Part shown: positions 3,456-48,390 of the stretch, piece after piece
How positions within the stretch are numbered: position 1 is the first letter of the stretch
Layout of the letters: each line of letters starts with the position of its first letter
Source of the DNA: Thermoanaerobaculia bacterium
Lineage (GTDB): Bacteria; Acidobacteriota; Thermoanaerobaculia; UBA5066
DNA length: 64,000 nt
Assembly: GCA_963719225.1 (NCBI GenBank)
Contig: CAVRAY010000001.1
Span: 1,600,001-1,664,000, forward strand
Direction: 5' to 3'
Translations under genes and position numbers: made by a program
Notes under the pieces: generated by a model
Database searches by the model: none
What the model was told of the DNA's origin: nothing
The model's input: the letters and a program-made list of their open reading frames with translations, nothing else

Positions 3456-4517
3456 TTACGCCCCAGTGCGCGAGCGACCCAGGCACGAGGGACATTGAGG
3501 AGGAAGAGGAAGATTTCGTTGAATGAGGTTCATTTCGCGGAGCCTGTGCACGCGAGCCGCGGCGCAGCAGGCCGGGGCGCTGAGAGCGTCCGCATTCCAG
3601 AGATCCGCAAGAACGAGACCCGCCGCGCGGTGTCGTCCTTCTTCACCTTCTAGGAAATCCCCCGGCGCTTTCCCCTCTTCCCCTTCTAAGAAATCTTCTC
3701 TTCGTTCTTCTTCCAGGGAATCTCCCAGCGCCATCTCCAGATCCTCGAGCGTCGGGGGAATGAACAGACCCTGCCTCTGCAGCTCTTCCATCGCGCCGTT
3801 GCCGAGGCGCGTCGGGATGAGAGAGACGACCTCCGCGCCCGCCCGAAAGGACGTCGCGACGCTCCTGCGCGTTGCGTCCGCCCACTCCTCTCTCCGCAGA
3901 AACGGGAGCCCGACGAGGACGAAGCTGCGGACGCCGATCGCGTGAGACGAGAGGAATCGACAGGCGTTCTCGAAATCTTCGACCGTCATCCCCTTGTCCA
4001 GTCTTCTCAGGATCTCCTCGTTGGCGGTCTCGAGCCCGAGAGCGATCTGGAGGCGCGGGCCCCCGAGGAGATCGCGAAACCGCAGGCTCGATTCGCCGAC
4101 GAGCGCGGGGTGGCATTCCACGACCACGCTCTCGAAACCGCGCGCGAGCGAGGCGATTTCCTCGTGGTCCCCCCGCGGAATCGACGCGCGGTCGAAGAAG
4201 CTGCCCGCGTTGTAGAGCTTCAGGACGTTCGCGGCGGGCAGCCTCTCGAGCGCGTAGCGGAGCTGCGCCGGAATCGCGCCCCTCGGCGTCGGCGCCTCGA
4301 GCGTGTTCTTCCAGAGATCGCACATGAGGCAGTGCCAGGGGCACTCCCGGTTCGTCAGGAAGACCGTGGCGACCCGGTCCGTTCCGCCGTCCACGCGGGG
4401 CTCCTCCTCGACGAAGACGCCGTACGGGCGGAACGGATCCACCGCGTTGCGGTCGGGCCGCAGGCCGAGGATCGCCTCCTCGCGCGCCTCGCGGTCGATG
4501 GAAGAGAAATCGATCAC
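3456..4517 (-). CDS. Radical SAM protein, RaSEA/TIGR01210-like
   Basis: CPWHCLMC; KLYNAGSFFD; IALGLETAN; GTG start at 4517 overlaps the upstream TGA (GTGA). Confidence 0.8.
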   Translation of the reverse strand: MIDFSSIDREAREEAILGLRPDRNAVDPFRPYGVFVEEEPRVDGGTDRVATVFLTNRECPWHCLMCDLWKNTLEAPTPRGAIPAQLRYALERLPAANVLKLYNAGSFFDRASIPRGDHEEIASLARGFESVVVECHPALVGESSLRFRDLLGGPRLQIALGLETANEEILRRLDKGMTVEDFENACRFLSSHAIGVRSFVLVGLPFLRREEWADATRRSVATSFRAGAEVVSLIPTRLGNGAMEELQRQGLFIPPTLEDLEMALGDSLEEERREDFLEGEEGKAPGDFLEGEEGRHRAAGLVLADLWNADALSAPACCAAARVHRLREMNLIQRNLPLPPQCPSCLGRSRTGA

Positions 4518-5856
4518 GCGGCGCCGAGGTATCGCGACAGGAACGCGGCGCGATACTGCGCCTCGGAGAAGGGAAAGCGCCGCGCGTAGACGTCCTGTCC
4601 GCCGGCGCCGTGCTGGAACCTCCGTTTCGGGTAGACGGGCATCCTCCGGCCGGTGATCGCTTCGACCCCGCGCGAGACGATCCCGCCCTTCAGCGCGTAG
4701 AGCTTCTGGACGTCTCCCTCGGTGAGCGCGTCGAACGGGATTCCCTCGGCCACGGCAATGACGCGGGACGCGTGAACGGGCTGAAGCCGGAGAAGCCGCA
4801 GGCGCGAAGGGGTGCGTACGTGCGCGCGTACGAGCGGCTCTGGCCTCCGGAGTACGTGTCCGAGTGCTTGAGCGAGCCGACGCCCCAGCCTTCCTGGTAG
4901 AGCATGGGGTTCGTGACGACGCTCCGGATCGTGAGCTCGGGTTTTCGTCGATGGGGTAGTCCTTCAGGTTCTCGTCGCCGCCGTCGCCGTCCAGGAGGAA
5001 CCGCCACCGGGGATGGCGGGCGCGGATCCCGCGGAGGAGCGCGAGCGCCATCGTCGCGGACTCCACGTCGCGCGGCTTGTAATCCTCGATGATCCGCACG
5101 GCCTCCACCGGGTCGCAGCGAAGCCGGGTCGACCTCGACGTTCTCGAGGAAGAAACCGAGGTCGAGAGCCTCGAGGAAGGCCCTCGCCTGCGCGAGATCC
5201 GGGCCTTCGAAGGTCGGCCCGCTGCCGAGGGAGAGCGTGAAGGCCTTGAGGCGCGACGGGCTCATGCCCAGGCGGCGGAGGACATGGTGCGTCACGAGGA
5301 AAACGGCACCGCTGTCGATGCCGCCCGAGAAGCAGACGCCGACGGGCTCGTTCGGGGGAACCGTACGGAGCCACTTCGCGATCTCGTTCGCGAGCGCGCC
5401 CACGTAGAGGCGGCCGATCTCGCCGAGGTCGGAAGGAAGGACGTTCCGCGCGGGCGTGAACGTCCGCACGTAGCTCGGGGCGGGGTCCGGGCAGCCGACG
5501 AGCCGCAGCGTGACGACGTGGTGCGCAGGCACCATGCGCGTATAGCTCGGGTGGAACTGGTCGGCGTGAGAGTGCTCGGCGAGCCAGCTCTCGATCGCGT
5601 CGATCCGGTCCGCGACGACGAGAACGGGGCCGTCCTTTTCCTTCGCGAGGAAATACCTCAGGGGGCGGTCGAGAGAGCGCGCGAGCCGCACGGTGATCCC
5701 GTCCACCCCGACGAGCGCGTACGAGCCGTCGAGGGCGGCGACGGCTTCCGCGTCCCCGGACGCCACGCGCGCGCGGGCGACCTCGAGGGAGCGGCCGTGG
5801 AGAACGTTGAGGGCCGGATCGGTGAGATCGACGACGCGGGCGACGGAACGGTACAT
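4514..5856 (-). CDS. Asparagine-synthetase-like ATP pyrophosphatase (three apparent frameshifts near 5115, 4940 and 4765)
   Basis: PP-loop CFSGGIDSG and DGDGGDENL; reading frame reconstructed across ORFs 4690..6012, 3456..5108 and 4514..4753; ATG at 5856; no N-terminal Cys. Confidence 0.75.
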
Positions 5857-5997
5857 CGGCCTCGAGCCTCCGGGGGCGATGCTAACGCGGCCGACGGCCT
5901 TCCTCCGCGCGGGCCTGCTATATTCCGACGGCTTCTGCGCCCGCCGGCGGCCTCGCGGCATCCGGTCGAGGCCCGACGCGGAGGTCACCGAAAAGAG

Positions 5998-6999
5998 ATG
6001 CTCGAAGCGCACGGACTCTCAAAGTCGTTTTACGGAACACCGGCGGTCACGGACGTGAGCTTCCGGGTCGAGAGCGGCGAGATCCTCGGCTTTCTCGGCC
6101 CCAACGGAGCCGGCAAGACGACCACGATGCGGATGATCACGGGCTTCCTCGAGCCGACCGCCGGCCGCGTGACGCTCGCGGACGTGGACGTCATGGAAAA
6201 GCCCCTTCTCGCCAAGCGCTCGCTCGGATACCTGCCCGAGACGCTCGCGCTCTACCCGGAGATGCGGGTCCGGGAATACGTCGCCTTCCGCGCCGAGCTC
6301 TGCGGAGTCCCGGGTCGCGAGGTGAAGGCGTTCGTCGACGAGGCGCTCCGGAAGTGCTTCGTGGACGACGTCGCGTCGAATCCGATCGGCAACCTCTCGA
6401 AGGGATACCGCCAGCGCGTCGGCCTCGCGGGAGCGCTCGTCCACAAGCCGAAGGTGCTCGTGCTCGACGAGCCCACGGTCGGGCTGGACCCGCGCCAGAT
6501 CGTGAAGGTGCGCGAGCTTATCCGGGACCTCAGAAAGGACCACACGATCCTGCTGTCGACGCACATCCTTCCCGAAGCCGAGCTCGTCTGCGACCGGATC
6601 CTCATCATCGACAAGGGTCGCATCGTGGCTTCCGGGACGCCCGAGACGCTTCGCCACCAGATGTCGCAGATGCCCAGCGTGACCGTCACCCTGAAGGGCG
6701 AGGTGCCCGAGGCCGATGCCGTCTTCCGCCAGCTGGCCGGCGTCTCGCGCGCCTCGCGCATCGGGGCAGGCGGCGAGACGCGCGTCACGCTCGACGGCGA
6801 GGCGGGCACGGACCTGCGCGAATCCGTCTTCAAGGAGACCGTCACGCGCGGCTGGACCCTGCTCGAGCTCACGCCCCGCCAGGCTTCGCTCGAGGACGTG
6901 TTCGTGCGCCTCGTCTCCCGCGACGCCGCCGTCGAGGTCGACACGAAGCCGGGCGTCGACCCGAGCCTCGAGGCGACCGCCACGGGGGTTCCGAAGTGA
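5998..6999 (+). CDS. ABC transporter ATP-binding protein (GldA-like)
   Basis: GPNGAGKTT, LSKGYRQRV, LDEPT; ATG at 5998. Confidence 0.92.
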   Translation: MLEAHGLSKSFYGTPAVTDVSFRVESGEILGFLGPNGAGKTTTMRMITGFLEPTAGRVTLADVDVMEKPLLAKRSLGYLPETLALYPEMRVREYVAFRAELCGVPGREVKAFVDEALRKCFVDDVASNPIGNLSKGYRQRVGLAGALVHKPKVLVLDEPTVGLDPRQIVKVRELIRDLRKDHTILLSTHILPEAELVCDRILIIDKGRIVASGTPETLRHQMSQMPSVTVTLKGEVPEADAVFRQLAGVSRASRIGAGGETRVTLDGEAGTDLRESVFKETVTRGWTLLELTPRQASLEDVFVRLVSRDAAVEVDTKPGVDPSLEATATGVPK

Positions 7000-7733
7000 A
7001 GGCCTTCGTCGCGATCGTCAAGCGCGAGTTCTTCTCGTACTTCGTCTCACCGCTCGGCTACCTCGTGCTGACGTCGTTCCTGCTCGTGAGCGGGTGGGTC
7101 TTCATGGTGCTCGTCGGAGCGCTCAATTCGCCGGATACGCCCCGGATGGCGCTCATGTCCACGTTCTTCACGAACGTGTTTCAGTGGATCTTCCTGATGC
7201 TCGTCTCGGCGATCATCGCGATGCGGCTCCTCACGGAAGAGCGCAAGTCGGGCTCCATCGAGACGCTGCTGACCGCGCCCGTGTCCGAGGCGACCGTCGT
7301 GGCGGCGAAGTTCACGGGAGCCTGGTGCTTCTTCCTTTTCCTGTTCGTTCCGACGGTGACCTATCCGCTCCTGCTCTCGCGCTTCGGAGGATTCGACCTC
7401 GGGCCGGTCCTCGCGGGCTACCTCGGAATCGCGCTCATCGGCGCGCTCTTCATCTCCGCCGGCACGTTCGCGTCCGCGCTCACGAAGAACCAGATCGTCG
7501 CCGCCATCCTCGCGTTCGTTCTCATCCTCGGCAGCTTCATCATCGGGATCGCGCGAGACTTCCTGCCCTTCCCCTCGGCGCGCGAGGCGCTGAGCTACCT
7601 GAACATCCTCGAGCACATGGATGACTTCGCCCGGGGCATCGTGGACACGCGCCGAATTCTCTACGTCGTCTCGACTGTGGTCTTCTTCCTCTTCCTCTCG
7701 ACGCGCGCCCTCGAGGCGAACAAGGCCCGCTGA
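6996..7733 (+). CDS. ABC-2 type permease (GldF-like)
   Basis: REFFSYFVSPLGY, EERKSGSIETLLTAP, multiple TM helices; GTGA overlap. Confidence 0.88.
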   Translation: MKAFVAIVKREFFSYFVSPLGYLVLTSFLLVSGWVFMVLVGALNSPDTPRMALMSTFFTNVFQWIFLMLVSAIIAMRLLTEERKSGSIETLLTAPVSEATVVAAKFTGAWCFFLFLFVPTVTYPLLLSRFGGFDLGPVLAGYLGIALIGALFISAGTFASALTKNQIVAAILAFVLILGSFIIGIARDFLPFPSAREALSYLNILEHMDDFARGIVDTRRILYVVSTVVFFLFLSTRALEANKAR

Positions 7734-7734
7734 G

Positions 7735-15067: not shown

Positions 15068-15990
15068 AGCGCCCTTCTCGCGTGGTAGCTCGACCTGACG
15101 AGCGGTCCTGATTCGACGAGAGAAAACCCCATCTCCTCCCCCTCTGTTCGAATCTCCTCGAACTCCGCCGGCGTGTAGTACCGCTCGATCGGGAGGCGGC
15201 GCGCGTGGGGCTGGAGGTACTGGCCCACCGTGACGACGTCCGCGCCGCAGGACCGGATGTCGCGTAGCGTCGCCCGAAGCTCCTCGCGCGTCTCGCCGAG
15301 CCCCACCATGACCCCGCTCTTCACTTTCAAAGAAATCTTCTCCTCGTCTCTCCTCTTGGCGGCCCTCCGGAGGAGCTCCAGCGATCGGGCGTAGATCGCG
15401 TCCGGCCGCACGCGCCGGTAGAGGCGCTCGACGGTCTCCGTGTTGTGGTTGAGCACCTCCGGCCACGCGTCGAGGACGGTCCCGAGGGCGGCCTCGCTGC
15501 CGAGAAAGTCCGGGATGAGAACCTCGATCGTGACGCCGGTCGCGAGGGAGCGAATCTCCCGGATCGTCGCCGCGAAGTGAGCGGCGCCGCCGCCCGGGAG
15601 CTCGTCGCGGTTCACGGACGTTATGACGGCGTGTGCGACGCCGAGCGTCTTCACCGCCTCGGCCACGTGGCGCGGCTCTTCGGGGTCGAGAGGCTTCCCG
15701 GCACCCTGCGCCACCGCGCAGAAGCCGCAATGCCGCGTGCACACGTCGCCCATGAGCATGAACGTCGCCGTCTTCTCGACGCCCCAGCATTCGAAGATGT
15801 TCGGGCAGCGCGCCTCCTGGCACACGGTGTTGAGGTGCTTGTCCTCCAAGAGTTTCGCGATGCCGCGCGAGGTCTCGTTGTCGTGGACCCGCACCTTGAG
15901 CCACTCGGGCCGGGGGGTGATGCCGTAAAGAGGCCGCGCGGCGCTCACGCTTTTCAGTCTAGCGCGTGTGACTGCGTTGCGATCGGCCAT
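15064..15990 (-). CDS. lipA: Lipoyl synthase
   Basis: [40 protein letters not shown]. Confidence 0.96.
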
Positions 15991-17967: not shown

Positions 17968-19640
17968 CTACTCGATCGCCTCCAGCTCGCTCCACGCGCC
18001 CTTCTCGAGCGTCGCCTTGACGACGTTCACGAACGCATCTCCCTCGGCCCCGTCGATGAGCCGGTGGTCGAACGTGAGCGCGATGTAGCCCATCGTCTTG
18101 ATGGCGAGCGAATCGGAGCCGTCCGGCATCTCGACGACCTTCGCCCTCTTCTCGATCGCGCCGACGCCCATGATGGCGACCTGCGGCTGGTTGATGACGG
18201 GCGTCGCGAAGAGCGACCCGAACGAGCCGTGATTCGTCACGGTGAACGTGCCCCCCGCCACCTCGTCCGGCACGAGCTTCTTCGCGCGCGCCCGCGTGGC
18301 GAGGTCGTTCGCCGCGCGCGCCAGGCCCACGAGGGAGAGGTCGTCCGCGCGGCGGATGACGGGCACGATGAGACCCCAGTCGAGCGCGACGGCGATACCC
18401 AGGTTCACCTCGCGGTGATAGACCACGTCGTCGCCGACGATGGAGGCGTTCACGAGCGGGCGTGCCTTGAGAGCCGCGACCGCCGCGCGCAGAAGGAAGG
18501 GCAGGTACGACAGCTTCGTGCCGTACTGCTGCTCGAAGCGGGCCTTCACGCGGTTCCTCAGCTTCGCGATGCCCGAGTAGTCGACTTCGAACACGGTCGT
18601 CACGTGAGCCGACGTCTGCTTCGACTCGACCATCCGCTGCGCGATCTTCCGTCGCATCGCGCTCATGGGCTCGACGGTGACGCTGCTTCCGGACGGGAAC
18701 GCGAGCGCCGTGGGCGACGGCGCGGGCGCGCGGGGGGGACCGGAGCTTCCGCGGGTCGCGCGGCGAGGACCGCGGGAGCCGGCTCGGGAGCTGCGGGAGA
18801 GGGAGCCGGAGGTTCGGAGATTTTCTGAGAAGGCGCGGGAGCGGGCGCTGCAGCCTGTGTTGCCGGTGCCGCGGCGGCAGCCGGCTGTACACCCTTCGAA
18901 GAATCTTCTCTCCCGGTCCCCGGCGCGGCCGAAGGCCGCGCTCCTCCCGCCAGGTATCCCTCGATGTCCTGCTTCGTCACCCGGCCCGAGATGCCCGTGC
19001 CCGGGATCTGCGAGATGTCGACGCCCTTCTCCTCCGCGATCGCGCGGACGACGGGCGACGAGCGCCGCCGAAGGAGCTCTTCCTGTGATTCGCCGGGTTG
19101 AGCGGGAACGGAAGAAGGAATTGAAGATTGCTTGGAAGGCGCGGGAACGGCTGCCGCAGATGGTGTCGCCGGAGCCGCGGCGGGGGCCGGCTGCCCACCC
19201 TTCGAAGAAACCGGCGCCGCCGGAGGCGGCGCTCCTGTCCCCGGTCTCTCTTTAGCCTTCGAAGAATCTTCCGCCGGCGGAGCCGGCGGTGGCGCCGCGG
19301 CGGCCTGAGCCGCCATTCCCGCCGCGGTCGAGCTTTTCACCTCGTCCGACGAAGCCTGTTCTTCCGCAGCCGGCGGCGCAGGCGCCGCAGCGGCTTTCTC
19401 TCCCGCCTCTCCGAGGCGCGCGACGACGGTGTTGATGGGCACTGTCTGCCCTTCTGGGACGAGGATTTCGAGGAGGGTACCGCTGCCCGGAGAGGGGATT
19501 TCGGCGTCCACCTTGTCGGTGGAAATCTCGAAGAGAGGTTCGTCGCGCTTCACCGCGTCGCCGGGCTTCTTGAGCCATTTCGTGAGCGTGCCTTCGGCGA
19601 TCGACTCGCCCATCTGCGGCATGATGACGTTCGTCGGCAT
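17968..19640 (-). CDS. 2-oxoacid dehydrogenase E2 dihydrolipoamide acyltransferase (apparent frameshift at the homopolymer 18732-18738)
   Basis: Lipoyl domain STDKVDAE, E3-binding GTGISGRVTKQD, catalytic FDHRLIDG in the second frame. Confidence 0.9.
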
Positions 19641-26217: not shown

Positions 26218-27578
26218 CCGACGTCCTCAAGTTCGGCGGGACGTCGGTGGGATCGGCCGAGCGGATCCGGGACGTCGCGCGCCTCGTCGAAACGCGCGGG
26301 GGAGAGCCGGGCCTCGTCGTCGTCTCGGCGATGGCCGGGGTGACGGACCTTCTGGTCGGATTGAAGAATTCTTCGAAAGAGAAGGAGCGGGCCGCTGCCG
26401 AGTCCGCGCTCGACGAGCTGGAAGGTCGCCACCGCGCGGCGCTCGATGGCCTTTCCCTTCCCGAAAGCGAGAAGCGGATCTGCGCCGTCGCGATCGACGA
26501 GGAGATGCGGCGATGCCGGGAGCTGTCTCTCGGGATCTCCCTACTCGAAGAAATCTCTCCTCGAACCTCGGATGCGCTCCTGGCGATCGGAGAATTGATC
26601 TGCTCGCGCCTCGTCGCCGCCGCGCTCCGCGCGAGCGGCGCGGAGGCCGTGTGGATCGATCCGCGCGACGTCCTCGCGACGGACCGCTCGTACGGCGCGG
26701 CGCTGGCGGACGAGAAGGAGACCGCGATCCGCGTGGCCAGGCACGTCGCGCCTCACCTCGCGGCGAGCCGGATCGTCGTCACGGGGGGCTTCGTCGGCGC
26801 CGCGCCGGACGGCTCGACGACGACCCTCGGCCGGGGAGGGTCGGACTACTCGGCCGCGCTCTTCGGCGCCGCGCTCCACGACATCGGGCGGTCCGTGGGC
26901 CGGATCGAGATCTGGACGGACGTGGACGGAATCCTGACCGCCGATCCACGCGTGGTTTCCGCGGCGCGGCTCGTGCCGGAGGTGAGCTATCCCGAGGCGG
27001 CCGAGCTGGCGTTCTTCGGAGCGAAGGTCCTCCATCCGGCCACGATCCGCCCGGCCGTGGCGCGCGGGATCCCGGTCGCCGTCAAGAACACGTTCCGCCC
27101 CGAATGCCCTGGAACCGTCGTGCGCCAGGACGTGCCCGGGAACGGCGTCCGGGCCGTCGCCATGCGCGGGGGGGTGACGGCGCTCTTCGTGGGCAGCCCG
27201 CGCATGCTGCTCGCCCACGGCTACGCGGCGAAGGTCTTCTCCGTCTTCGAGAAGCACGGCGTGCCGGTGGACGTCATCGCGACGAGCGAGGTCTCGATTT
27301 CCATCACGGTGAGCGAAAAGGCGCCCCTCGAAGGCGTCGTGCGCGACCTTTCCGAGTTCGCCGAGGTCTCGCTCCTCAAGCATCTCGCGGTCGTGTCCGT
27401 CGTCGGAAAGGGTCTGCGCTCGACGGCCGGGGTCGCCTTCCGGATCTTCGGCGCGGTCGGCGACGTGAACGTCGTCCTCATCTCGCAGGGCGCATCCGAC
27501 ACGAACGTGACTTTCGTGGTCGACGGAAACGACGCACCAGAAGCGCTGCGAAGGCTCCACAGGGAGTTCTTCGAATGA
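26214..27578 (+). CDS. lysC: Aspartokinase
   Basis: KFGGTSV, TLGRGGSDYSA, WTDVDG, FFGAKVLHP, two ACT domains. Confidence 0.95.
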   Translation: MTDVLKFGGTSVGSAERIRDVARLVETRGGEPGLVVVSAMAGVTDLLVGLKNSSKEKERAAAESALDELEGRHRAALDGLSLPESEKRICAVAIDEEMRRCRELSLGISLLEEISPRTSDALLAIGELICSRLVAAALRASGAEAVWIDPRDVLATDRSYGAALADEKETAIRVARHVAPHLAASRIVVTGGFVGAAPDGSTTTLGRGGSDYSAALFGAALHDIGRSVGRIEIWTDVDGILTADPRVVSAARLVPEVSYPEAAELAFFGAKVLHPATIRPAVARGIPVAVKNTFRPECPGTVVRQDVPGNGVRAVAMRGGVTALFVGSPRMLLAHGYAAKVFSVFEKHGVPVDVIATSEVSISITVSEKAPLEGVVRDLSEFAEVSLLKHLAVVSVVGKGLRSTAGVAFRIFGAVGDVNVVLISQGASDTNVTFVVDGNDAPEALRRLHREFFE

Positions 27579-28267
27579 AAGCCCTTCTGGTCGGATACGG
27601 GAAGATGGGGAAAGCCATCGAGATGGCGCTGATCCACAGCGGGCACGAAGTCGCCGGACGGTTGGGGCGCAAAGAGATTTCGGACTTTCCGATCTGCGAA
27701 GTCGCCTTTGAGTTCACCACGCCCGCCTCCGCTCCTCTGGTGGTCCCCCTTCTCCTTTCTCAGAAAATCCCGGTCGTCTCCGGGACGACCGGCTGGGACA
27801 CGACTTCGGCCGCGCACCTCGCACGGGAACAAAAGACTCTTTTTCTTCACTCCTCGAATTTTTCCCTAGGCGTCGCCGCGCTCAGGCGCGCGGTCGCCGC
27901 CGCTGCCGCCGCTCTCGCGCCGTTCTCCGAGTTCGAGCCGGGAATCGTGGAGCGGCATCACGCGGCCAAGAAAGACTCCCCCTCGGGAACCGCACGCACC
28001 CTCGCGCTCGACATCACGCGCGAGCCTCTCTCGAAGAGGTCCATCCCGATCGTCTCCCTCAGGCAGGGCGGCCAGCCGGGAGAGCATTCGGTCTACTTCG
28101 AGGGCACGGACGAGACGCTGGAGCTCGTGCACCGCGCCCGCTCGCGTTCGATCTTTGCGCTTGGCGCCGTGCGCGCCGCGGAATGGATGATCGACTCGGG
28201 CCGCTCGGGCCCGGTGACCTTCGACGAATTCTTCGACGATCTGTCGCTCAAGGGAGGCACTTCATGA
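27575..28267 (+). CDS. dapB: 4-hydroxy-tetrahydrodipicolinate reductase
   Basis: GYGKMG, VSGTTG, NFSLG, ERHHAAKKDSPSGTA. Confidence 0.94.
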   Translation: MKALLVGYGKMGKAIEMALIHSGHEVAGRLGRKEISDFPICEVAFEFTTPASAPLVVPLLLSQKIPVVSGTTGWDTTSAAHLAREQKTLFLHSSNFSLGVAALRRAVAAAAAALAPFSEFEPGIVERHHAAKKDSPSGTARTLALDITREPLSKRSIPIVSLRQGGQPGEHSVYFEGTDETLELVHRARSRSIFALGAVRAAEWMIDSGRSGPVTFDEFFDDLSLKGGTS

Positions 28268-29996: not shown

Positions 29997-30076
29997 AGCG
30001 AAGAGAAGAGATTTGCACGCGGCCTTCGGCCGCGCGACCGGGGAGTCGGAGAAGATTTCTTAGAAGGGAATAGGGA

Positions 30077-31339
30077 TTGCCGGACTCCGTTTTGCGTCGT
30101 GCCGCGAGTCTCTTCGGAACGCCGCTGTATCTGTACGACTTCGATGTGATCGAACGCCAGGTGTTGCGCCTCAGGCACGCCCTCGGCCCCCGCTTCGAGC
30201 TCGCGTATGCGGTCAAGGCCAACCCCTCGCTCGGAATTCTTTCCTTTCTAAGAAAATTCGGTCTCTCCTCGGACGTCGCGTCCCGGGGCGAGCTGCTCGC
30301 GGTGCGCCTGGCCGGATGTCCACCTTCCAAGATCCTCTCGACCGGCCCCGCGAAAACCGACGCCGACCTCGAAGCGCTCGTGCGCGCTCGAGTGTCGATT
30401 GTCCATGCGGAGGGTGAATGGGAGCTCGAACGCCTCGAGGAACTGGCAAGACGCCTGAGAAGGCAAGTTCCCGTGGGCCTTCGCCTGAACCCGCCCTGGG
30501 GCATTGCCGAAAAGCGCGTCATCATCGGTGGCCCCGGCGCGAAGAAGTTCGGATTCGACTTGAAGAGCGCGAGAGACGTTCTTCGAACGACGAAGAAATT
30601 CCCGCATCTCGACGTCTGCGGCTTTCAGGTGTTCAACGCCTCGAACGTCCTCGACGCGCGGCTCCTCGTCGAGAACACGCGTCGCGTGCTCGACCTCGCT
30701 CTTTCACTTTCGAAGAAATACGGCGTTCCGCTCCGCTCCGTGGATTTCGGTGGCGGCTTCGGCGTGCCATACGCCGGAAGAGAAAGACCACTGGATCTAG
30801 GAGTTCTTGGAAAGGGGCTGAGGGAGGTCGCGAAGGAGGCGCGCTCGAGCGGCCTGCCCGACTCGACTCGCCTCGTGTTCGAGCCCGGGCGCTTTCTCGT
30901 GGCCGAAAGCGGAACGTACCTCGTGAAGGTTCTGGGGACGAAACGGAGCCGCGGCGTCGACTACGTCCTCATGGATGGCGGTGTCCACCACTTCCTCCGC
31001 CCGGTCCTCCTCGGAACTCCCCACCGCGTCAGGCTCGTCAAAGGAACGGCGGGCGCTCGCGGCGGCCGGTCTTCACCTTCTAAGAAATCTCTGGTTCTTT
31101 CCGGTCCCCTCTGTACGTCTCTCGACATCCTCCATCCGGCCGCGCACCTCCCGCTCCCCGCCCGTGGCGACCTCCTCGCCTTCGAGAAAGCGGGCGCCTA
31201 CGGCTTCACCGAGTCGATGCCGCTCTTCCTCTCGCACGCGTGGCCGGCCGAGGTCGCCGTGTGGAAAGGTCGAATCACTCTCCTGAGGAGGCCGCCGACG
31301 GTGGAATCGCTCCTTCGTGCGCAGAGGCGGCAGGTGTGA
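30077..31339 (+). CDS. Fold-type III PLP decarboxylase, diaminopimelate decarboxylase-like (atypical motifs)
   Basis: YAVKANP, KFG, DFGGGFG, EPGRFLV, GPLCTSLD, GAYG; downstream of the dap genes. Confidence 0.8.
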   Translation: MPDSVLRRAASLFGTPLYLYDFDVIERQVLRLRHALGPRFELAYAVKANPSLGILSFLRKFGLSSDVASRGELLAVRLAGCPPSKILSTGPAKTDADLEALVRARVSIVHAEGEWELERLEELARRLRRQVPVGLRLNPPWGIAEKRVIIGGPGAKKFGFDLKSARDVLRTTKKFPHLDVCGFQVFNASNVLDARLLVENTRRVLDLALSLSKKYGVPLRSVDFGGGFGVPYAGRERPLDLGVLGKGLREVAKEARSSGLPDSTRLVFEPGRFLVAESGTYLVKVLGTKRSRGVDYVLMDGGVHHFLRPVLLGTPHRVRLVKGTAGARGGRSSPSKKSLVLSGPLCTSLDILHPAAHLPLPARGDLLAFEKAGAYGFTESMPLFLSHAWPAEVAVWKGRITLLRRPPTVESLLRAQRRQV

Positions 31340-32892: not shown

Positions 32893-35184
32893 TCATCCCT
32901 CGAGGCCCAGCCTCTTCAGGAGCTCGAGGAATCGCGGCTCGCTCCGAAGAGGGTCGAAACGGGGATGGACCTTCAGCCAGACGAGCGTGGAGTCGTGCTC
33001 GTCGTACGCGCGCTCGAGCCATTCCAGCGCGAATCCGGTTTCCCCGAGGCGCGCGTAGATCGACGCGAGTCCCCAGGGAGAGACGTATTGCCGGTCGCGC
33101 CGCGCCTTGAGCTCCTCGAGAACGTCGAGAGCCTCCTGCCGCCGACCCGCGACCGCGCAGGCGTTCGCGAGCCCGATCGACGGATCCGCGACGGTGTTCC
33201 CGGCGAGCGCGACGGCCCTCTCGTAGTGCCGGATCGCCTCGTCGATCCTCCCGCACGACTCGAGGGCACGCGCGAGGTCGCTGTGGCCGGCCAGGAAGTC
33301 GGGATCGAGCTCCAGCGCCTTGCGGTACGCCTCGATCGCCTCGTCGTAGCGGCGCGCGTAGAAGAGGACGTCCCCGACGGCCGTGTGGATGATCACGGAG
33401 AGAGGATCGAGCTCCAGGGCGCGGCGCGCCTCGGTGATCGCCTCTTCGTGGCGGCCCAGCCCCGAGAGGAGCTGCCCGTACCAGCGGTGGCCCGTCGCGT
33501 AGCCGGGACTCAGCCGCACGGCGTCCCGGAATTCCCGCTCCGCCGAGGACCACTCCCAATCGTAAAAGCGGCGCACGAATCCGAGAGAGGCATGGGCTTC
33601 CGCGAGGTTGGGGTCGAGCTCGAGGGCGCGCAGAGCGGCGCTCTTGGCCTGCGGGAAGGCCTCGGAGGGCGGCAGCGCCTTGATGTTGCCGAGCACGCCG
33701 AAGGCATCGGCAATCCCTCCCCACGCAAGGGCATACGATGGATCCAGCTCGATCGCGCTCTCGTAGTTTTGGATCGCGGCGCGCATGCCTTCGGGTGTCC
33801 ACTTGTTCCAGAAGAAACGTCCTTTCAGATAGAGCTGATACGCCTCGGCGTTCCGCGTGTGCTGCTTGGCGACCTTCCGCCTTTCCGGAGCGCTCAGCTT
33901 GAAGCGCAGGTGCTCGCAGATCTCGTGTGAGATTCCCTCTTCGATCGCGAGGAGGTCCTGCATCGGCCGCTCGTAGCGTGCTCCCCAGAGTCGGAATCCG
34001 GAGGAGACGTCCACGAGCTCCGCCTGCACGCGCAGGAGGTCGCCGACCTTCGAAAGGCGGCCGGTCACGACGGCGCGTACGTCGAGCTCGCGGCCCGCGG
34101 CCAGAGGATCGATCTCGCGTCCGGAAAAGCGAAAAACGGTGCTCCGCGCCATGACGCGAAGCTTCGGGAGATGGGAGAGCGTGTCGATCAGGCGTTCCGT
34201 GATGCCGTCTCCGAGGTAGTCGTGTTCGCTCTCGCCGCCGGCGTTCACGAGGGGCAGCACCGCGACCGAATCGATGGCCTTTCTCTTCCGGCTTCGCGAA
34301 GGCCCCGAGGCAGAAGCTTCGAGGAGTTCGCGGAGTCGCGTCGCGAGGACGACAGCCGAGGAGGCGCGGCGGGCGGGGTCCTTCTCGAGACACTGCCGCA
34401 CGATGTCTTCGACGGCGGCGGGGACGTTTGCGCCGGACGTCTTCGGCGGCTGTTCGTGAAGAATCGCCGTCATGATCTCGGCCGCGGTCTCCTTCTGGAA
34501 CGCCCGGCGACCGGTCAACATTTCGTAGAGGATTGCGCCGAAGGAAAAAACATCCGAGCGCGCGTCGGCAGGCAAGCCGCGCACCTGTTCGGGGGACATG
34601 TAGCCGACAGTGCCGAGGACGGTCCCCGGCTCCGTCGGGCGCGTCAGCGTCGGCGCATCCGCCTCAGGAGAGGAAACGCCCGCCGTCAGGTCCTTCGCGA
34701 GGCCGAAATCCAGGACCTTCGCCCGGCCGTCGCTCGTGATCATGACGTTCTCGGGCTTCAGGTCGCGGTGGACGACGTTCTTCTGGTGTGCCGTCGCGAG
34801 GCCCTCCGCGATCTGCCGGGCGAGGTCGAGAGCCGTGCGCGTCGGAAGGGGTCCCGAAAACAGGCGGTGCCGGAGCGTTTCGCCTTCGACGAGCTCCATG
34901 ATCAGGAGATGACGCGTCGACGATGAGGAAGAGAGGGGACCGGGGATTTCTTCGAATGAGTAGATGGCAGCGATTCCGGGATGATTGAGCGCTGCGAGTA
35001 GCCGGGCCTCCCTCTCGAACCGCTCTTTCCTCTCTTCACCTTCTAGGAAATCCTCCGGCAGTACCTTTACCGCGACCTCCCTCGCGAGCCGCAGGTCTCT
35101 CGCCCGATAGACTTCGCCCATCCCGCCGGCCCCGAGGGGCTCGAGGATCTCGAAAGACCCGAACCGGGTACCCGAGGGAATCAA
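32893..35184 (-). CDS. Ser/Thr protein kinase with TolB-N-like and TPR domains
   Basis: [26 protein letters not shown], TPRs; likely TTG start at 35184. Confidence 0.92.
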
Positions 35185-35257
35185 GATCCTGAAGCGTATG
35201 ACGACGTCGCGGGCCCGCGACTCGCCCTCTTCACCTTCTAGGAAATACAATCCCCGG

Positions 35258-36982: not shown

Positions 36983-37109
36983 GGAAGAGCGAAGAGAAGA
37001 TTCTCTTGGAAGGGTGGAAGACGGGGCCGGGCGGTCGCGCCATCGAGCTCTATTCACTTTCTAAGAAGATTCTCTTCATCCGCGGCCCGGTTCTTGCGAG
37101 GTAGACTGC

Positions 37110-39095: not shown

Positions 39096-39883
39096 GGGGG
39101 ACCCGAGCGCGGCAGCCCCGATTGCTTCGGGTTGCCGGTGGGGCTCTGGTCGCGGTGGTTTTCTTCTTAGAAAGTGGGTGCGTCAGCGGGAGCGGGCCGC
39201 GCGCGTCGAGTGCTGCCGCCGCGGCCACATCGACGGCGGCATCTCCCTCTTCCCCTTTCAAAGAAAACTCTTCGACAGCGTCTCCCGCTGCTTCTCTTCT
39301 TGAAGCGTACGAGAGGGCGCGGGTCGCGGCCTGGGATCCCGCCCGCCGCTTCAAAGCGCTCTTCAAGGCGGAGGTGTCGCCGAAGGCCGGCGCGGTGGGT
39401 CGCGGCTACCTCTCCGTCTGGTGGGACGGGGCGAGCGGCTCGCTCACGTGGCGGTCTTCGGCGCCGATCGCCGGAAGAGGAAGAGGGGGATTTCTTAGAA
39501 AGGGAAGAGGGGACGCCGGTGCCGCCGCGGCAGGTGCCGGTGCCGGCGGCGCCGGTCGCTCGCCGCTTCCTGGGAAAACCTCCGCGGATGACCTGATCGC
39601 CTGCGTCCTGGGCACGCCGGATGCCCCCGCCTCGTCCTCATTACCAGTCGACGAAACTCCGAGAGGCTTACTGCTGCGCATCGACGGCTCGAAGAGCTCC
39701 GTCCTCCTGGACCGGGAGGGAAAGCCGATTGAATTCTCTTTTCCGAACGACGAGACCGTGAAGCTGCAGCCGGGGGAAGGCGTGCCGCGCCGCATCGAGG
39801 CGAGCGGGCCGGAGGGCCGGGCGGTCCTCACTCTCGAATCCTATTCGTCGTGGCCGGAGAACGAGCGAGTGCCCCCGGCATGA
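39092..39883 (+). CDS. Putative lipoprotein in the lolB syntenic position
   Basis: Hydrophobic stretch plus SGC lipobox-like site; lies between TPR and ispE with GTGA/ATGA overlaps. Confidence 0.55.
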   Translation: MRGTRARQPRLLRVAGGALVAVVFFLESGCVSGSGPRASSAAAAATSTAASPSSPFKENSSTASPAASLLEAYERARVAAWDPARRFKALFKAEVSPKAGAVGRGYLSVWWDGASGSLTWRSSAPIAGRGRGGFLRKGRGDAGAAAAGAGAGGAGRSPLPGKTSADDLIACVLGTPDAPASSSLPVDETPRGLLLRIDGSKSSVLLDREGKPIEFSFPNDETVKLQPGEGVPRRIEASGPEGRAVLTLESYSSWPENERVPPA

Positions 39884-40818
39884 CCGGGGCCGGAAGGGCC
39901 ATCGTCGTCGAAGCGTTCGCGAAGGTGAACTGCTCGCTGCGCGTGCTGGGGAAGAGACCCGACGGTTTCCACGAGCTCGACACCATCTTCCAGACGGTGG
40001 ATCTCACCGACACGATGTATTTCTTAGAAGGTAAAGAGAAAGACGGCGCGGCGGGCGAGGTCTCTCTCACAATCGAGGGCGGCGCGTCGAAGGATCTGCC
40101 CGCGGACTCGAGCAACCTGATTCTCCGCGCCGCCAACGCGTTGCGCGAGAGGTTCGCGGTGCGCGCAGGCGCCCGTATTCACCTTTCTAAGAGAATCCCG
40201 ATCGGCGGCGGGCTCGGCGGCGGCAGTTCCAACGCTGCAGCGACCTTGAGGGCGCTCGACTCTCTCTGGCACTTGAACTCCTCTGACGCCGATCTCCACC
40301 GGCTCGCAGCCTCCCTCGGATCCGACGTGCCTTTCTTCCTTCTCGGCGGTCGCGCCCGGGGCACCGGGCGCGGCGAAATCCTGGAATCTCTTCTGGACGG
40401 CCCCGAAGAATGGCTCGTTCTCGTCTTTCCCCCGTTCTCTCTTTCCACGGCAGCGGTTTACGGCGCGTTTTCCGCGCCCGCGTTGACAGATTCCGCAGCC
40501 CAAACTAACCTGCGCGCCTCCGACTCCGGTGGCGGCCCGGACCGGAACGACCTGGAATCGGCGGCGGAGTCCCTCCGGGGAGAGTTGCGCGGGATCCGTC
40601 TGGCCCTGTCGGACCTCGGCGCGACGAGCGCACGCCTGTCCGGGAGCGGCTCGACGGTGTTCGGGGTATTCGGCGACGAAGAAAGCGCCCGTCGGGCGTT
40701 CGAAGGGCTCGAGGGATTGCGAAAAGAAATGATGGCGACGACGACGATCGTGAAGACCGTGTCGAAGGCGGCATTCGCGCGCCGCGCGACACCCACTGTC
40801 AGGGCGCAACGCGGATGA
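39880..40818 (+). CDS. ispE: 4-diphosphocytidyl-2C-methyl-D-erythritol kinase
   Basis: AKVN..L, KRIPIGGGLGGGSSNAA, LGSDVPFF, SGSGSTVF. Confidence 0.95.
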   Translation: MTGAGRAIVVEAFAKVNCSLRVLGKRPDGFHELDTIFQTVDLTDTMYFLEGKEKDGAAGEVSLTIEGGASKDLPADSSNLILRAANALRERFAVRAGARIHLSKRIPIGGGLGGGSSNAAATLRALDSLWHLNSSDADLHRLAASLGSDVPFFLLGGRARGTGRGEILESLLDGPEEWLVLVFPPFSLSTAAVYGAFSAPALTDSAAQTNLRASDSGGGPDRNDLESAAESLRGELRGIRLALSDLGATSARLSGSGSTVFGVFGDEESARRAFEGLEGLRKEMMATTTIVKTVSKAAFARRATPTVRAQRG

Positions 40819-43388: not shown

Positions 43389-43508
43389 ATCTCAACCCCC
43401 GTTCGCCGGCGTGCCGGCGAACCACAACCTTGGCTCGGCACCGGACTCCGGTCCACAGCCGCGCCTCGTGACCGGCTCTTGCCGGCGCGATCCAGAAGGA
43501 GGATCCCC

Positions 43509-43958: not shown

Positions 43959-43982
43959 CCGGGAAGGATCAGGAGAAACACA

Positions 43983-44234: not shown

Positions 44235-45207
44235 GCGGGCCCTCGCCGTTCTCGGGGCGGCGCTCGCGGCGGCTTTGACCGCGGCGGCTCCGCCCTTCGG
44301 CCTCGTTCTGGCGCCGCATGCGGCCGCGCGCCTGGGCCGCGCGGCGCTCGAGTCCCAGCGCCTGGCGACCGGCTTCCTTCTGCCGGCCCTCGCGGTTCCG
44401 ATCGCCCTCCTTCTCGGAGCCCTGCTCGTCCCGGAAGGCGCGATCGTCGCCTCGGTTCTCGCGATCGCGCTCGTCGCCCTTCCCGCGATCGCCCTCTTCG
44501 CGGCGGCGCGGGACGGCCGTCGCCGGGACGACGTCCTGCTCGTCGTCTTCGCGCTCACGGGGATCGGCGGCCTCGCGGCTCTCCTCGGCGTGTCCGTTGC
44601 CACGGGGCGGGACGCGGGGACGCTCCTCGCGGACCGCTGGGCCGCGCTCGTTCCGGAAATGCTCGCCAACTACCGATCCAGCGGCTGGAGCGAAACCTCG
44701 GTCGCGACGGTGGCGCGGATCTTCGAGTTCGGCCGGGTCCTGATCGAGGAGCAGCTCGCCGGTCTCGTTCTCGCGGCCGCCGTTCTTCATGCGGCCCTCG
44801 TCGTCTATGGGTTCGCGCGCGGCGCCGGCCTGGCCGAGGCGGACTGGTCCGAAGCGTCCTTCAGCCGTTTCCGCACACCGCTCGCGGCGGCCGCCGCGTT
44901 CGTTCCTGCCGGTCTTCTCGCGGCCGTGGGCGGCGCGGAGCTGCGCCGGCCCGCCGTCGATCTCCTGCTGCCGCTCGGCGTCTTGTTTTTTCTGAGAGGT
45001 CTCGCCATAATCCGCGCTCTTCTCGACCGCGGAAGAGCCGGCCTCGTCGGCCGGGTGCTCGTCTACGTGCTGGTCTTTCAGATGCCGTTTCCCCTTCTTC
45101 TCGCGCTTTCGGGCCTCTTCGACGAATTCGTCGACGTGAGGACGCGGCTCGAAAAGAGAGGAACCGGCGGCGAGTCCGCGGGTCCGCCCGGACCCGACGG
45201 ATTCTGA
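44230..45207 (+). CDS. YybS/DUF2232-like membrane protein (start uncertain: ATT 44230 or TTG 44275)
   Basis: Multi-TM, C-terminal [12 protein letters not shown]; position between rpsR and rplI. Confidence 0.72.
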
Positions 45208-45243
45208 CCGGCGGAAATTCCCAGAAAAGCTGAGGAGCTCACG

Positions 45244-45693
45244 ATGAAAGTGGTCCTGACCGACGACGTGAAGGGGCTCGGGCACCGGGGCGACGTGGTG
45301 AACGTCGCCGAGGGCTACGGCCGGAACTTCCTCCTGCCGAAGGCTCTCGCGTATCCCGCCACCGACGGAAACCTGAAGAGGCTGGAGCAGGAAAAGAAAC
45401 GCTACGACGCCCGCATCGAGCACGAGAAGGACCAGGCCGCCGCCGTGGCGAAATCCATCGAGGGCGCGAAGATCGTCCTGCACAAGAAGGCTGGCGACAA
45501 CAACGCGCTCTATGGCTCGGTGACGCCGTCCGAAGTGGCCGACGCCCTCGAAGCCAAGGGCATCACGGTCGACAAGAGGAAGATCGACCTGGAGGAGCCC
45601 ATCAAGCGCCTCGGCATCCACACGGTTCACGTGAAGCTCCATCGCGACGTAACGGTGGGCGTCACGGTCGAAGTCCTTCCGCTCGTCGTCTGA
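45244..45693 (+). CDS. rplI: 50S ribosomal protein L9
   Basis: LGHRGDVVNVAEGYGRNFLLP, LYGSVT. Confidence 0.97.
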   Translation: MKVVLTDDVKGLGHRGDVVNVAEGYGRNFLLPKALAYPATDGNLKRLEQEKKRYDARIEHEKDQAAAVAKSIEGAKIVLHKKAGDNNALYGSVTPSEVADALEAKGITVDKRKIDLEEPIKRLGIHTVHVKLHRDVTVGVTVEVLPLVV

Positions 45694-45789
45694 CACGGAA
45701 ACCGCCCGGAAAGAATCCTGGAGCCCGCGGCACCTTCGACTCCGTGTCCGCCGGGCTGACGACGTCCCGTACAATCGCGACACGTTCTC

Positions 45790-48390
45790 ATGACGCTCGC
45801 GCCAGGCACACGCCTCGGTCCTTATGAGGTTCTCGCCTCGCTCGGCGCGGGAGGAATGGGCGAGGTCTACCGGGCGAAAGACCCGAAACTCGCGAGAGAG
45901 GTCGCGGTAAAGGTTCTGCCTGGGGATTTCTTAGAAGGGGAAGAGAGACGGGAGCGATTCGAGCGGGAGGCGCGCGCGCTCGCGAGACTCAATCACCCTG
46001 GCATCGCCTCCGTATATTCATTCGAGGAAATCCCCGGTTCTTCCTCTTCCTCAACTTCTTCCTCTTCGTCTTCCTTGTCCCGCCACATCCTCGTCATGGA
46101 GCTGCTCGAGGGCGAGACGCTGCGCGCGCGCCTCGCGGGCGGGCCGCTGTCGGTCCGCAAGGCGGTGGACTTCGCGGTCCAGGTCGCACGGGGCCTCGCT
46201 GCGGCGCACGAGAAGGGCGTCGTCCACCGCGACCTCAAGCCGGAAAACCTCTTCGTGACGAGGGACGGCCGGGTCAAGATCCTCGACTTCGGTCTCGCGA
46301 AGTCCGTCGAAGCCGGCGCCGGGAGCGGCGGGACGAACCTCCCGACGATGTCGAAGGGCACGGAGCCGGGCGCGGTTCTCGGGACGCTCGGCTACATGTC
46401 GCCGGAGCAGCTCCGGGGCCTCCCCGCGGACCACCGGACCGACCTCTTCAGCTTCGGTGCGGTGCTCTACGAGATGCTTTCCGGGCGGAAAGCGTTCCGG
46501 GGCGACACGGCGGCCGACACCGTCTCGGCGATCCTGCGCGAAGAGCCGCCCGATCTCTCCGCGACGAACCGGACGATCCCGCCTGCGCTCGAGCGGATCG
46601 TGCGCCACTGCCTCGAGAAGAGTCCGGATGAAAGAGCCCATTCCGCGCACGACCTCGCGTTCGACCTCGAGTCCCTCTCGACGGCGTCTTCCGGGTCCAT
46701 CGCGCCGTCTCGAGCGGTCGCCTTCCGAAAACCCTCCCGGCAAGCTCTCATCCTCGCTTCCGTATGCGCCGCGGCCGGCTTGCTCGGCGGGCACGTCGTC
46801 TGGAGGACGCCCGTGCCGGCGCCGCCGACGTTCCACCGGCTCACGTTTCGGCGCGGGAACGTCCTCGGGGCGCGTTTCGCGCCCGACGGCCGGACGGTCG
46901 TGTACGGCGCGGCGTGGGGAGGCGCACCCTCGGAGATCTTCACGGTGCGCACGGAGGGTCCTGAGTCGCGGCCGCTGGGGTTCTCGTCCGCGACCGTGTT
47001 GTCCGTGTCTTCCGGCGGCGAGCTCGCGATCCTCACACGAGAGGGCATGACGGACCCGGGCGCCTGGGGAACGCTTGCGCGAGTGCCGCTTTCGGGCGGG
47101 GCTCCGCGGCCGCTTCTCGAGGAGGTCAACGACGCCGACTGGACGCCCGACGGCAAGGAACTGGCGGTCGTACGCGTCCGCACGGAAGGCGGTCGACGCA
47201 TCGAGCTTCCACCCGGGAAGACTCTCTACGAGACGTCGCGCAGGCTCGGGTCCCTGCGTGTCTCGCCGGACGGCTCGAAGGTCGCCTTCGTCGAGTACGG
47301 AGACGGGGACGCTTCGCTGCGCGTGGTCGACCGCGCGGGGAAAGCGCGCACGATCGCGGGACCGATGGCATCTTTCTCCGGCCGCTTTGCCTGGAACCCG
47401 TCGGGCCGCGAAGTCTGGTATTTCGGCGGGAGTGGCCGGAAGGACGCGGCGCTCCGCGCCGTGGATCTCTCGGGTCGGGTACGGACGCTCTATCGCTCGA
47501 CGGGCTTTCTCTTCGTGCACGATGTTTTCCCGGACGGGCGCGTGCTCCTCGAGCACGCCGCAAGCGTGCGCGGGCTCATGTTCGCGCGCACCGGCGACCG
47601 GCAGGAGACGGAGCTATCCTGGTTCGACAGCTCGCGGATCGTGGCGGTGGCTGCGAGGGGGCGCGCGGTCCTGTTCAACGAGGGCGGCGAGGCGCTGGGC
47701 GGCCGGCTGCAGGCCTTCTTCCGGAAGACGGACGGCTCGTCCGCCGTACGTCTCGCCGACGGCGAAGGGCTTGCTCTCTCCCCGGACGCGACGCGCGTCA
47801 TCATGCGCACCGGAGACGGCCTGACGATTGCCCCGGTGGGCGCCGGTGCGCCGGTTCCCGTTGGGCTCGGCCCGATCGCAGGCGTGACGTCCGCTTCGTT
47901 CTTCTCCGACGGAAGGCGGCTCCTTCTCCATGGAGCCGAGAAGGGAAAGCGTCCGCGGTTCTGGATCGTCGAACCCGGAGGCATCCCTCGTCCGATCTCG
48001 CCCGAAGGCACGCTCGGGGACGCCGGGCTCATGTCGCCTGACGAACGGAGGGTGATCGGCTGGGCGGCCGACACGTCGATCCTCTCGATCGTCTCGACCG
48101 AGGGAGCTGCGGCACGCACCCTCGCCGGAACGCAGTACGACGAACCCCTCGGCTGGACGGCCGACGGCCGGTCGATCTACATCCGCCCGAGCCCCGGACA
48201 GCTGGGGATGATCGGCACGCTCGACGTGGACACGCTTGCACGCAAGCCCTGGAAATCGTTCGCACCGCCGGATCCCTCGAGCGTCTCGTCCTTCCCGGGA
48301 GTCGCGTTCGCTCCGGATGGATCCGCGTATGCCTACACGTACCAGCGCGTGCTGACGTCCGACCTCTACGTGGTCGAAGGGCTGAAGTGA
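45790..48390 (+). CDS. Ser/Thr protein kinase with TM helix and TolB-like beta-propeller
   Basis: [23 protein letters not shown], repeated (F/W)(A/S/T)PDG blades. Confidence 0.93.
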   Translation: MTLAPGTRLGPYEVLASLGAGGMGEVYRAKDPKLAREVAVKVLPGDFLEGEERRERFEREARALARLNHPGIASVYSFEEIPGSSSSSTSSSSSSLSRHILVMELLEGETLRARLAGGPLSVRKAVDFAVQVARGLAAAHEKGVVHRDLKPENLFVTRDGRVKILDFGLAKSVEAGAGSGGTNLPTMSKGTEPGAVLGTLGYMSPEQLRGLPADHRTDLFSFGAVLYEMLSGRKAFRGDTAADTVSAILREEPPDLSATNRTIPPALERIVRHCLEKSPDERAHSAHDLAFDLESLSTASSGSIAPSRAVAFRKPSRQALILASVCAAAGLLGGHVVWRTPVPAPPTFHRLTFRRGNVLGARFAPDGRTVVYGAAWGGAPSEIFTVRTEGPESRPLGFSSATVLSVSSGGELAILTREGMTDPGAWGTLARVPLSGGAPRPLLEEVNDADWTPDGKELAVVRVRTEGGRRIELPPGKTLYETSRRLGSLRVSPDGSKVAFVEYGDGDASLRVVDRAGKARTIAGPMASFSGRFAWNPSGREVWYFGGSGRKDAALRAVDLSGRVRTLYRSTGFLFVHDVFPDGRVLLEHAASVRGLMFARTGDRQETELSWFDSSRIVAVAARGRAVLFNEGGEALGGRLQAFFRKTDGSSAVRLADGEGLALSPDATRVIMRTGDGLTIAPVGAGAPVPVGLGPIAGVTSASFFSDGRRLLLHGAEKGKRPRFWIVEPGGIPRPISPEGTLGDAGLMSPDERRVIGWAADTSILSIVSTEGAAARTLAGTQYDEPLGWTADGRSIYIRPSPGQLGMIGTLDVDTLARKPWKSFAPPDPSSVSSFPGVAFAPDGSAYAYTYQRVLTSDLYVVEGLK

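Follow-up and report, generated by a model that had tools for sequence, protein, structure and literature searches.

The window analysed here is a stretch of 64,000 nucleotides (G000:C1:1,600,001-1,664,000) from the genome of a Thermoanaerobaculia bacterium, which comprises 4.75 Mb at 68% GC in two contigs (C1 and C2). It holds radical SAM genes, a 2-oxoacid dehydrogenase E2 open reading frame (ORF), two Ser/Thr kinase genes, methylmalonyl-CoA mutase and TPR genes and a GHMP kinase gene (IspE), and scattered through these genes and the gaps between them is a short AT-rich box with the core 9-mer TTC(T/C)TAGAA. Genes were called with a dicodon model built for this analysis (4,188 genes, 92% coding; gene edges are approximate), and an Rfam search of the window returned one tRNA only. 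The core occurs exactly 12 times, as nine copies of TTCTTAGAA and three of TTCCTAGAA, with five on the plus strand (30057, 39164, 39492, 40021, 45928) and seven on the minus strand (3648, 3684, 30246, 31078, 35041, 35236, 37059). An earlier note, made from the letters of the window, had claimed at least 12 copies on both strands, and the flanks and peptides that it quoted are all present: DFLEGEE twice in the radical-SAM-like ORF and once in each of the two kinases, YFLEGKE in IspE, and GFLRKGRG, SSPSKKS and LSFLRKF. Nine of the ten degenerate copies that it named score at least 14 bits with the profile described below, while the tenth (27567) scores only 9 bits.

The box is over-represented far beyond chance, as had been suspected. 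TTCTTAGAA is the most over-represented 9-mer of the whole genome, with 273 copies against 6.7 expected under an order-4 Markov model, and a codon-preserving shuffle, the check that the earlier note had proposed, leaves 0-5 copies in coding DNA (16 synonymous-codon shuffles) where the genome has 180; 71 of 361 TTA codons lie inside boxes. A profile trained on the genome finds 796 sites at 18 bits or more, and reversed and complemented control profiles give 40 and 37 sites per strand against 403 and 395 real ones, so that about one in ten of the 796 sites may be noise. The consensus opens with a purine tract and continues with (A/T)TTTCTT(A/C)GAA(G/A)G, (G/T)GAA and another purine tract. While the motif of about 20 bp described before is real, the true box is longer, measuring about 30-40 bp, and is flanked on either side by purine-rich sequence, with a purine excess reaching about 25 bp upstream. 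It is polar and non-palindromic, and its flanks are asymmetric. With 386 sites on the leading and 410 on the lagging strand, there is no replichore polarity and no switch of the KOPS or Chi type. In a small sub-class (14 of 796 sites), TCTGC(A/C)(A/G)A lies upstream of the box centre at a constant distance of 13-14 bp. A reading as a sigma-70 -10 box (TAGAAT upstream of genes in relatives) was rejected, two key positions being unconserved in the box.

The boxes come in facing pairs. Among adjacent sites no more than 300 bp apart, the counts are 256 for convergent, 7 for divergent and 70 for same-strand arrangements, where about 10 convergent ones would be expected if sites were independent. 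In all, 514 of the 796 sites form 257 pairs, and of the remaining 282, 127 have a weaker facing partner (at least 8 bits) against 9 with one on the opposite side. This convergent pairing was absent from the earlier note, and none of the three models offered there predicts it. In the window, the sites and pairs are as follows.

2949..2957, minus strand: core of the TCCTTCGAA variant, 25 bits, outside the range of the earlier note
3515..3692: weak plus-strand box at 3515 (11 bits) facing minus-strand boxes at 3648 (32 bits) and 3684 (38 bits) in a radical-SAM-like gene; both minus-strand boxes read DFLEGEE
15326..15334, minus strand: single box, 34 bits, partnerless at 8 bits or more, in a radical SAM gene
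18823..18903: two convergent boxes (20 and 22 bits) whose centres lie 72 bp apart, within the linker of the 2-oxoacid dehydrogenase E2 ORF
19129..19266: second 72-bp pair (19129, plus strand, 15 bits; 19201, minus strand, 14 bits) and a minus-strand box at 19258 (27 bits), in the same E2 linker
26369..26552: convergent pair, 175 bp (31 and 20 bits), within one predicted gene
27567..27765: weak plus-strand box (9 bits) facing a minus-strand box at 27757 (30 bits), 190 bp
30057..30254: convergent pair, 189 bp (35 and 31 bits), across a gene start
30579..30717: weak plus-strand partner (11 bits) and minus-strand box at 30709 (29 bits), 130 bp
30804..31086: pair of 30804 (plus strand, 17 bits) and 31078 (minus strand, 33 bits), 274 bp; the 31078 box reads SSPSKKS
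34948..35049: convergent pair, 93 bp (29 and 32 bits), in a Ser/Thr kinase domain (DFLEGEE ... YSFEEIP)
35236..35244, minus strand: extra box, 28 bits, at the methylmalonyl-CoA mutase start
37003..37067: boxes of 23 and 35 bits that converge over a short distance of 56 bp, flanked by the mutase and TPR genes
39164..39265: convergent pair in an intergenic gap, 93 bp (one box just under 18 bits, the other 33 bits)
39492..39655: plus-strand box at 39492 (36 bits) with a weak minus-strand partner at 39647 (9 bits), 155 bp
40021..40193: convergent pair, 164 bp (34 and 26 bits), in the GHMP kinase (IspE) gene (YFLEGKE ... IHLSKRIP)
45928..46029: convergent pair, 93 bp (35 and 23 bits), in the second Ser/Thr kinase gene; the last site of the window

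The claim that no strong copy follows after about 46.1 kb holds, with zero sites of 8 bits or more from 46021 to the window end, and the gap after the last site extends for 45.9 kb, to C1:1,691,885. Among the genes of this site-free stretch (46,100-64,000 of the window and on to C1:1,691,885) are those for radical SAM and DegT aminotransferase proteins and, at C1:1,666.7 kb, for an integrase, which is consistent with a recently acquired island.

Most pairs are spaced about 70-250 bp apart, and the distribution has an abrupt lower limit near 68 bp and trails off to about 300 bp: successive 10-bp bins from 20 to 69 bp hold 1, 3, 5, 5 and 9 pairs, followed by 42 at 70-79 bp, which is the mode. 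Seven pairs with abutting arms form a short class at 37-40 bp, and spacings of 41-64 bp are rare. The median is 76 bp in 33 intergenic pairs versus 112 bp in pairs inside genes. In metagenome loci chosen for a 63-93 bp spacing (n=120), only three pairs fall at 63-68 bp; the high-GC loci among these 120 mostly match proteins of this genome at 60-95%, and in them the edge recurs near 69 bp. Each partner appears to follow the consensus on its own. Partners agree in 25.64 of 60 columns against 25.45 +/- 0.22 for shuffled partners, their duplex energies give z of -0.7 to -1.5 (232 pairs), and we found no arm covariation keeping a stem overall, nor genome-wide any heterotypic partner rule or correlation of partner strength. 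The spacers are mutually unrelated, except in paralogous kinases, and thus lack the conserved interior of repetitive extragenic palindromic (REP) elements, miniature inverted-repeat transposable elements (MITE) or Rickettsia palindromic elements (RPE).

Most of the pairs sit inside genes: 183 of 257 lie within one gene, 33 in one gap and 41 across a gene edge, and 630 of the 796 sites (79%) are genic. The other 166 are found in the 8% of the genome that is intergenic, at about threefold higher density, and sense-strand boxes there are most frequent 20-60 bp past stop codons. Of the intergenic classes, divergent promoter gaps have the lowest density, at 31 sites per 100 kb (10 of 248 gaps with sites) against 79 in convergent gaps (14 of 96). 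Site density, computed by third-position GC content (GC3) with sites masked, is 23-27 per 100 kb at GC3 0.70-0.85, 6.9 at 0.90-0.95, zero above 0.95 and 3.6 below 0.70 (44 genes); strongly codon-biased genes are avoided and the integrase island is also poor. No function common to the host genes is evident. The 55 residues that separate the two IspE boxes can be aligned with orthologs from other taxa, apart from a few extra residues at the first box, and the kinase pair encloses normal kinase sequence by ortholog alignment, while orthologs outside the clade have other residues at the box positions. These alignments show that the IspE and kinase pairs arose by substitution in place, and the spacers are ordinary orthologous coding sequence without insertion relative to orthologs. 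As pairs were built by substitution where the protein tolerates it, each costs codons and sometimes residues. Sites are retained in 192 of 214 alignments of orthologs from the genus and from metagenome loci (alignments that are not mutually independent) and in 5 of 33 from the sister genus, and third-codon identity is 0.80 in cores versus 0.64 nearby. Together with the codon shuffles and the differing residues of outside orthologs, this supports the idea that selection acts on the DNA rather than on the protein. A separate tandem array at G000:C1:2,293,000-2,320,000 comprises at least nine Ser/Thr kinase paralogs, each with a 93-bp pair in the kinase domain.

The pattern is confined to a narrow clade of uncultured Acidobacteria. 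It is present in 28 of 28 genomes of the genus of the window (g1) and in 8 of 8 of a sister genus (g11), and in none of 26 genomes from eight other genera of the family or of 397 other genomes of the phylum, a sample without g11; other phyla were covered by the metagenome scan only, among the matches listed. An exact 12-mer occurs 27-245 times in each of 24 genus genomes, is absent from the 16 genomes sampled in two other families and has 0-2 copies in each of 140 further genomes of the class. One genome flagged as unpublished (G025) is among the zero counts for the 12-mer and for the pairs in the phylum, as well as among the genomes with ParB2, and none of the conclusions rests on it by itself. 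Recurrence of the pairs in 36 related genomes and on independent metagenome contigs disposes of the assembly artefact that had been entertained. On viral contigs, a scan for single boxes gave scattered single matches, none of them in a locus above 58% GC, and a scan for pairs, limited to one spacing range, gave one match, also below 58% GC, and no pair-bearing phage. A full-text literature search, which covered neither subscription journals nor supplements, returned no description of paired boxes.

Along the chromosome, the clusters of sites increase towards the terminus. With dnaA and a perfect parS near C2:327-334 kb, dif at C1:2,037,568 and a circle order of C1 then C2 taken from GC skew, cluster density on the two arms is 2.7 and 5.5 per 100 kb in the tenth nearest the origin and reaches 16.3 and 17.5 in the tenth nearest the terminus, and the half centred on dif holds 315 of 444 clusters. 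The rise is present in each of five codon-score classes, and in a related genome (G544), which shares synteny and is therefore not independent, 58 of 86 clusters lie in the dif half. On both sides dif is flanked by pairs, of 70 and 76 bp, and a site within about 420 bp downstream of the dif-adjacent gene is found in 11 of 13 loci of the genus, 1 of 2 of the sister genus and 0 of 15 of other genera. Adjoining dif is also a second parA-parB operon (L211:9568-11524, G000:C1:2,037,568-2,039,524), and a dif-like site follows its ParB2 within about 350 bp in 21 of 21 loci of the family and, in a second family, at up to 900 bp in 7 of 9 loci. This parA2-parB2 operon may be a terminus partition module; a literature search on a dif-adjacent parA-parB operon returned no paper. 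In three genomes (L245, L249 and L250, family f2), extra XerD-arm-like half sites reminiscent of XDS lie downstream of parB2, 40-170 bp from dif.

Our preferred explanation, which we put forward tentatively and at somewhat less than even confidence, is that each box is one of the two arms of a DNA signal: a pair of duplex sites that a protein would bridge, forming a small loop by which the terminus half of the chromosome is organised. Because the partners match the consensus independently, the spacings suited to hairpins are rare and the spacers are uninverted in relatives, a protein would read each box on duplex DNA and require a facing partner at least 68 bp away. Polar boxes that face each other some 70-250 bp apart would come to lie side by side across a two-fold axis when the duplex makes a U-turn, so that a symmetric reader, which we infer to be a dimer or a tetramer, could grip both boxes and hold the intervening stretch as a small loop; the lower edge at about 68 bp might then correspond to the smallest such U-turn or to two large adjacent footprints. 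The loop would help in organising or segregating the chromosome's terminus half. A role like that of MatP/matS and XerD/XDS is suggested, by analogy, by the gradient towards the terminus, by the pairs at dif and by the way in which sites avoid promoters and strongly biased genes. As background, each matS is one palindrome, found in about two dozen copies and within the Ter domain only, and the few XDS sites resemble XerD arms. The boxes differ from both in that there are hundreds, polar and in obligate facing pairs, with a threefold gradient over all parts of both arms; they are thus no single palindromes or XerD-arm-like sites confined to Ter, and the box matches the XerD arm of this genome in 7 of 11 letters. 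What they have in common with matS of E. coli and XDS of B. subtilis, as described in excerpts of PMC11894783 and PMC11840125, is that they are short, dispersed within and between genes and terminus-biased, and according to the same excerpts both systems keep SMC off the terminus region. Among the three candidates of the earlier note, chromosome organisation is consequently the one that fits best. A more ambitious version, which we consider possible at most, is that the boxes are the cis half of a new system of the bacterial chromosome: convergent and polar, in their hundreds, and CTCF-like on a 100-bp scale, they would pin small loops along the origin-terminus gradient and on both sides of dif and would work with ParA2-ParB2 to partition the terminus. 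Each known family compared here departs from the boxes in at least one defining property, although their likely function has known analogues.

Several observations weigh against this explanation. The gradient is only about threefold, is not confined to the terminus and depends on a contig order derived from GC skew; it is mixed in G019 (among 100 of 133 positions listed) and in G528, where 12 sites lie on one side of dif and none in 400 kb on the other. Copy number varies tenfold within the genus and is far lower in the sister genus, which looks closer to gradual drive than to a fixed architecture. Helical phasing at 10-11 bp, as is usual for a rigid short loop, is absent from the spacing (p about 0.2 or more), and intergenic pairs (n=30) have a marginal signal of pairing specific to the partner (z -2.2 and -2.3 in DNA energies). 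Nor did any reader emerge: genera without pairs also have ParB2, XerD, extra Xer paralogs, topoisomerase IV and an AT-hook protein. Separately, dnaA (838 kb) and dif (108 kb) of G019:C2 are only 730 kb apart in a 3.9-Mb genome, reflecting either a large inversion or a misassembly.

The strongest competitor, to which we give about a one-in-four standing and which had already been named as an uptake-like sequence, is a paired signal for DNA uptake or transfer spread by molecular drive, for example through a dimeric receptor that folds the duplex into a U-turn for internal uptake. It remains a live rival for good reasons. The signal is clade-limited, strand-symmetric and built by substitution, its placement in genes appears to be that of minimum harm (rare in the most codon-biased genes, in low-GC3 genes and in the integrase island), the tenfold variation in copy number fits drive, and the genome has the competence-type genes ComEC, DprA and type IV pilin-like genes. 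The DNA uptake sequences (DUS) of Neisseriaceae and those of Pasteurellaceae (uptake signal sequences, USS), as portrayed in parts of PMC2817400, are likewise clade-specific, with a non-palindromic core and weaker flanks, on both strands, substituted into genes and rare in highly conserved and in transferred or foreign genes. These same parts describe them as acting singly, more evenly spread than random, under-represented in coding DNA and paired mainly in intergenic terminators, whereas the clusters here are clumped (gap coefficient of variation 1.22 versus 0.94), rise threefold towards the terminus and have 183 of 257 pairs inside genes. A less probable proposal is that the arms pair in single-stranded DNA or RNA as a long imperfect hairpin read by a nuclease, a helicase or an RNA-processing enzyme (REP-, NTS/Ssn- or RNase III-like). 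Pairing is indeed possible between any two consensus arms that face each other (mean about -27 kcal/mol as RNA), and the abutting arms of the seven pairs at 37-40 bp, the peak of sense-strand boxes past stop codons and the z of about -2.2 of intergenic pairs in DNA energies would suit it, but partners show no overall covariation, and short loops would be expected where 41-64 bp is rare and the mode is 70-79 bp. REP/BIME, NIME (dRS3) and RPE are insertions or extragenic hairpins with a mobilising nuclease, RPE being found also in reading frames. The boxes differ from these and from NTS in that their interior is the host gene's own orthologous sequence, their partners do not covary, and our search found no RAYT-type Y1 transposase and no linked Ssn gene, the one small GIY-YIG gene carrying a different repeat. 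The inverted arms around a variable interior are what they share with REP/BIME, NIME, RPE and, in the portion of PMC11893778 that describes it, NTS/Ssn.

Two further explanations fare worse. That the boxes are operators of a global transcription regulator looping DNA between inverted sites, the last of the earlier candidates, seems improbable to us: TTCT-N-AGAA is a short dyad and intergenic density is raised, but divergent promoter gaps have the lowest intergenic density and 79% of the sites are in genes without an evident shared function. Still less credible, and largely refuted already, is the idea that the pairs mark the termini of miniature mobile elements or serve as recombination sites for inversion or excision of the spacer. 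Inverted ends around a variable interior do resemble insertion sequence ends and invertons, and the core is one or two letters off the left arm of Bacillus subtilis dif as given in an extract of PMC3025954. Against this, the spacers are ordinary orthologous coding sequence, and among 134 pairs of relatives the spacer has the same orientation in 74 and the inverted one in none (32 unclear, 28 unplaced); no clade-specific tyrosine recombinase was found, the XerD recognition helix is unchanged and the clade's own dif arms differ from the box. No strand-change joint stands among the matches listed in four contig sets, which at 85% likeness represent relatives rather than this strain and are too divergent to add to this. 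KOPS and Chi are polar, over-represented and written into coding DNA, as the boxes are; the boxes differ in having no leading-strand bias and in having the facing pair as their unit. Sites of parS and Noc have a TTTC...GAA dyad with a 4-bp centre. The boxes share the dyad, and the second ParB paralog lies next to dif, but their centre is of 3 bp, their flanks are asymmetric, and the helix of the ParB paralog is the same in box-less genera; the distributions of ParB2 and of the boxes do not match, the former being present in 46 of 46 genomes of the order and the latter in two genera only.

A two-arm signal of this kind would mean a new reader and a new geometry of DNA recognition. To our knowledge, very few DNA signals rewrite proteins genome-wide (uptake sequences, Chi, KOPS and matS), and none of them needs a facing partner at a set minimum distance. 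If the pairs organise the terminus, they would be a third solution beside MatP/matS and XerD/XDS; if they drive uptake, they would add a third family to the uptake signals, the first to come in pairs. The sister genus with its few copies would represent the signal in an early or a decaying state. The clean split between 36 genomes with pairs and 26 close relatives without them makes the reader findable by gene profiling.

Several proteins were considered as the reader. The genome encodes SMC, ScpA, ParAB-parS, FtsK, XerC, XerD, gyrase and a second type II topoisomerase (topoisomerase IV). ParB2 beside dif was set aside on account of its near-identical helix-turn-helix and recognition helix in box-less genera, XerD on account of its unchanged recognition helix there, and the extra Xer paralogs as not clade-specific; the four other integrases have mobile-looking contexts. 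ParC of topoisomerase IV occurs in 39 of 41 genomes of the family and a basic AT-hook protein of 164 residues in 56 of 63. A RAYT-type transposase and an Ssn-like GIY-YIG protein were rejected for the findings given above. Presence in other genera may leave room for a changed specificity in a shared protein. The AT-hook protein (L413:4045-4539, minus strand) has an AT-hook-like segment, RRGRPGRPPK, and Atlas matches under 0.9 to unnamed clusters, and is possibly a new nucleoid protein. The small GIY-YIG gene (G000:C2:804,500-805,400) is apparently broken and flanked by its own Ssn-like hairpin repeats.

Two other features were noted in passing. About 8 kb at G000:C1:55,000-63,500 are nearly free of C on the plus strand, with no converted copy elsewhere in the genome, and are likely a long-read consensus artefact. 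In a genome of another family (L280-L286, G033:C1:920,001-1,060,000) there are short tandem heptamer arrays with TGAAAC(C/T) and ATCACAA-type units, often in back-to-back inverted groups, which are absent from the genome of the window.

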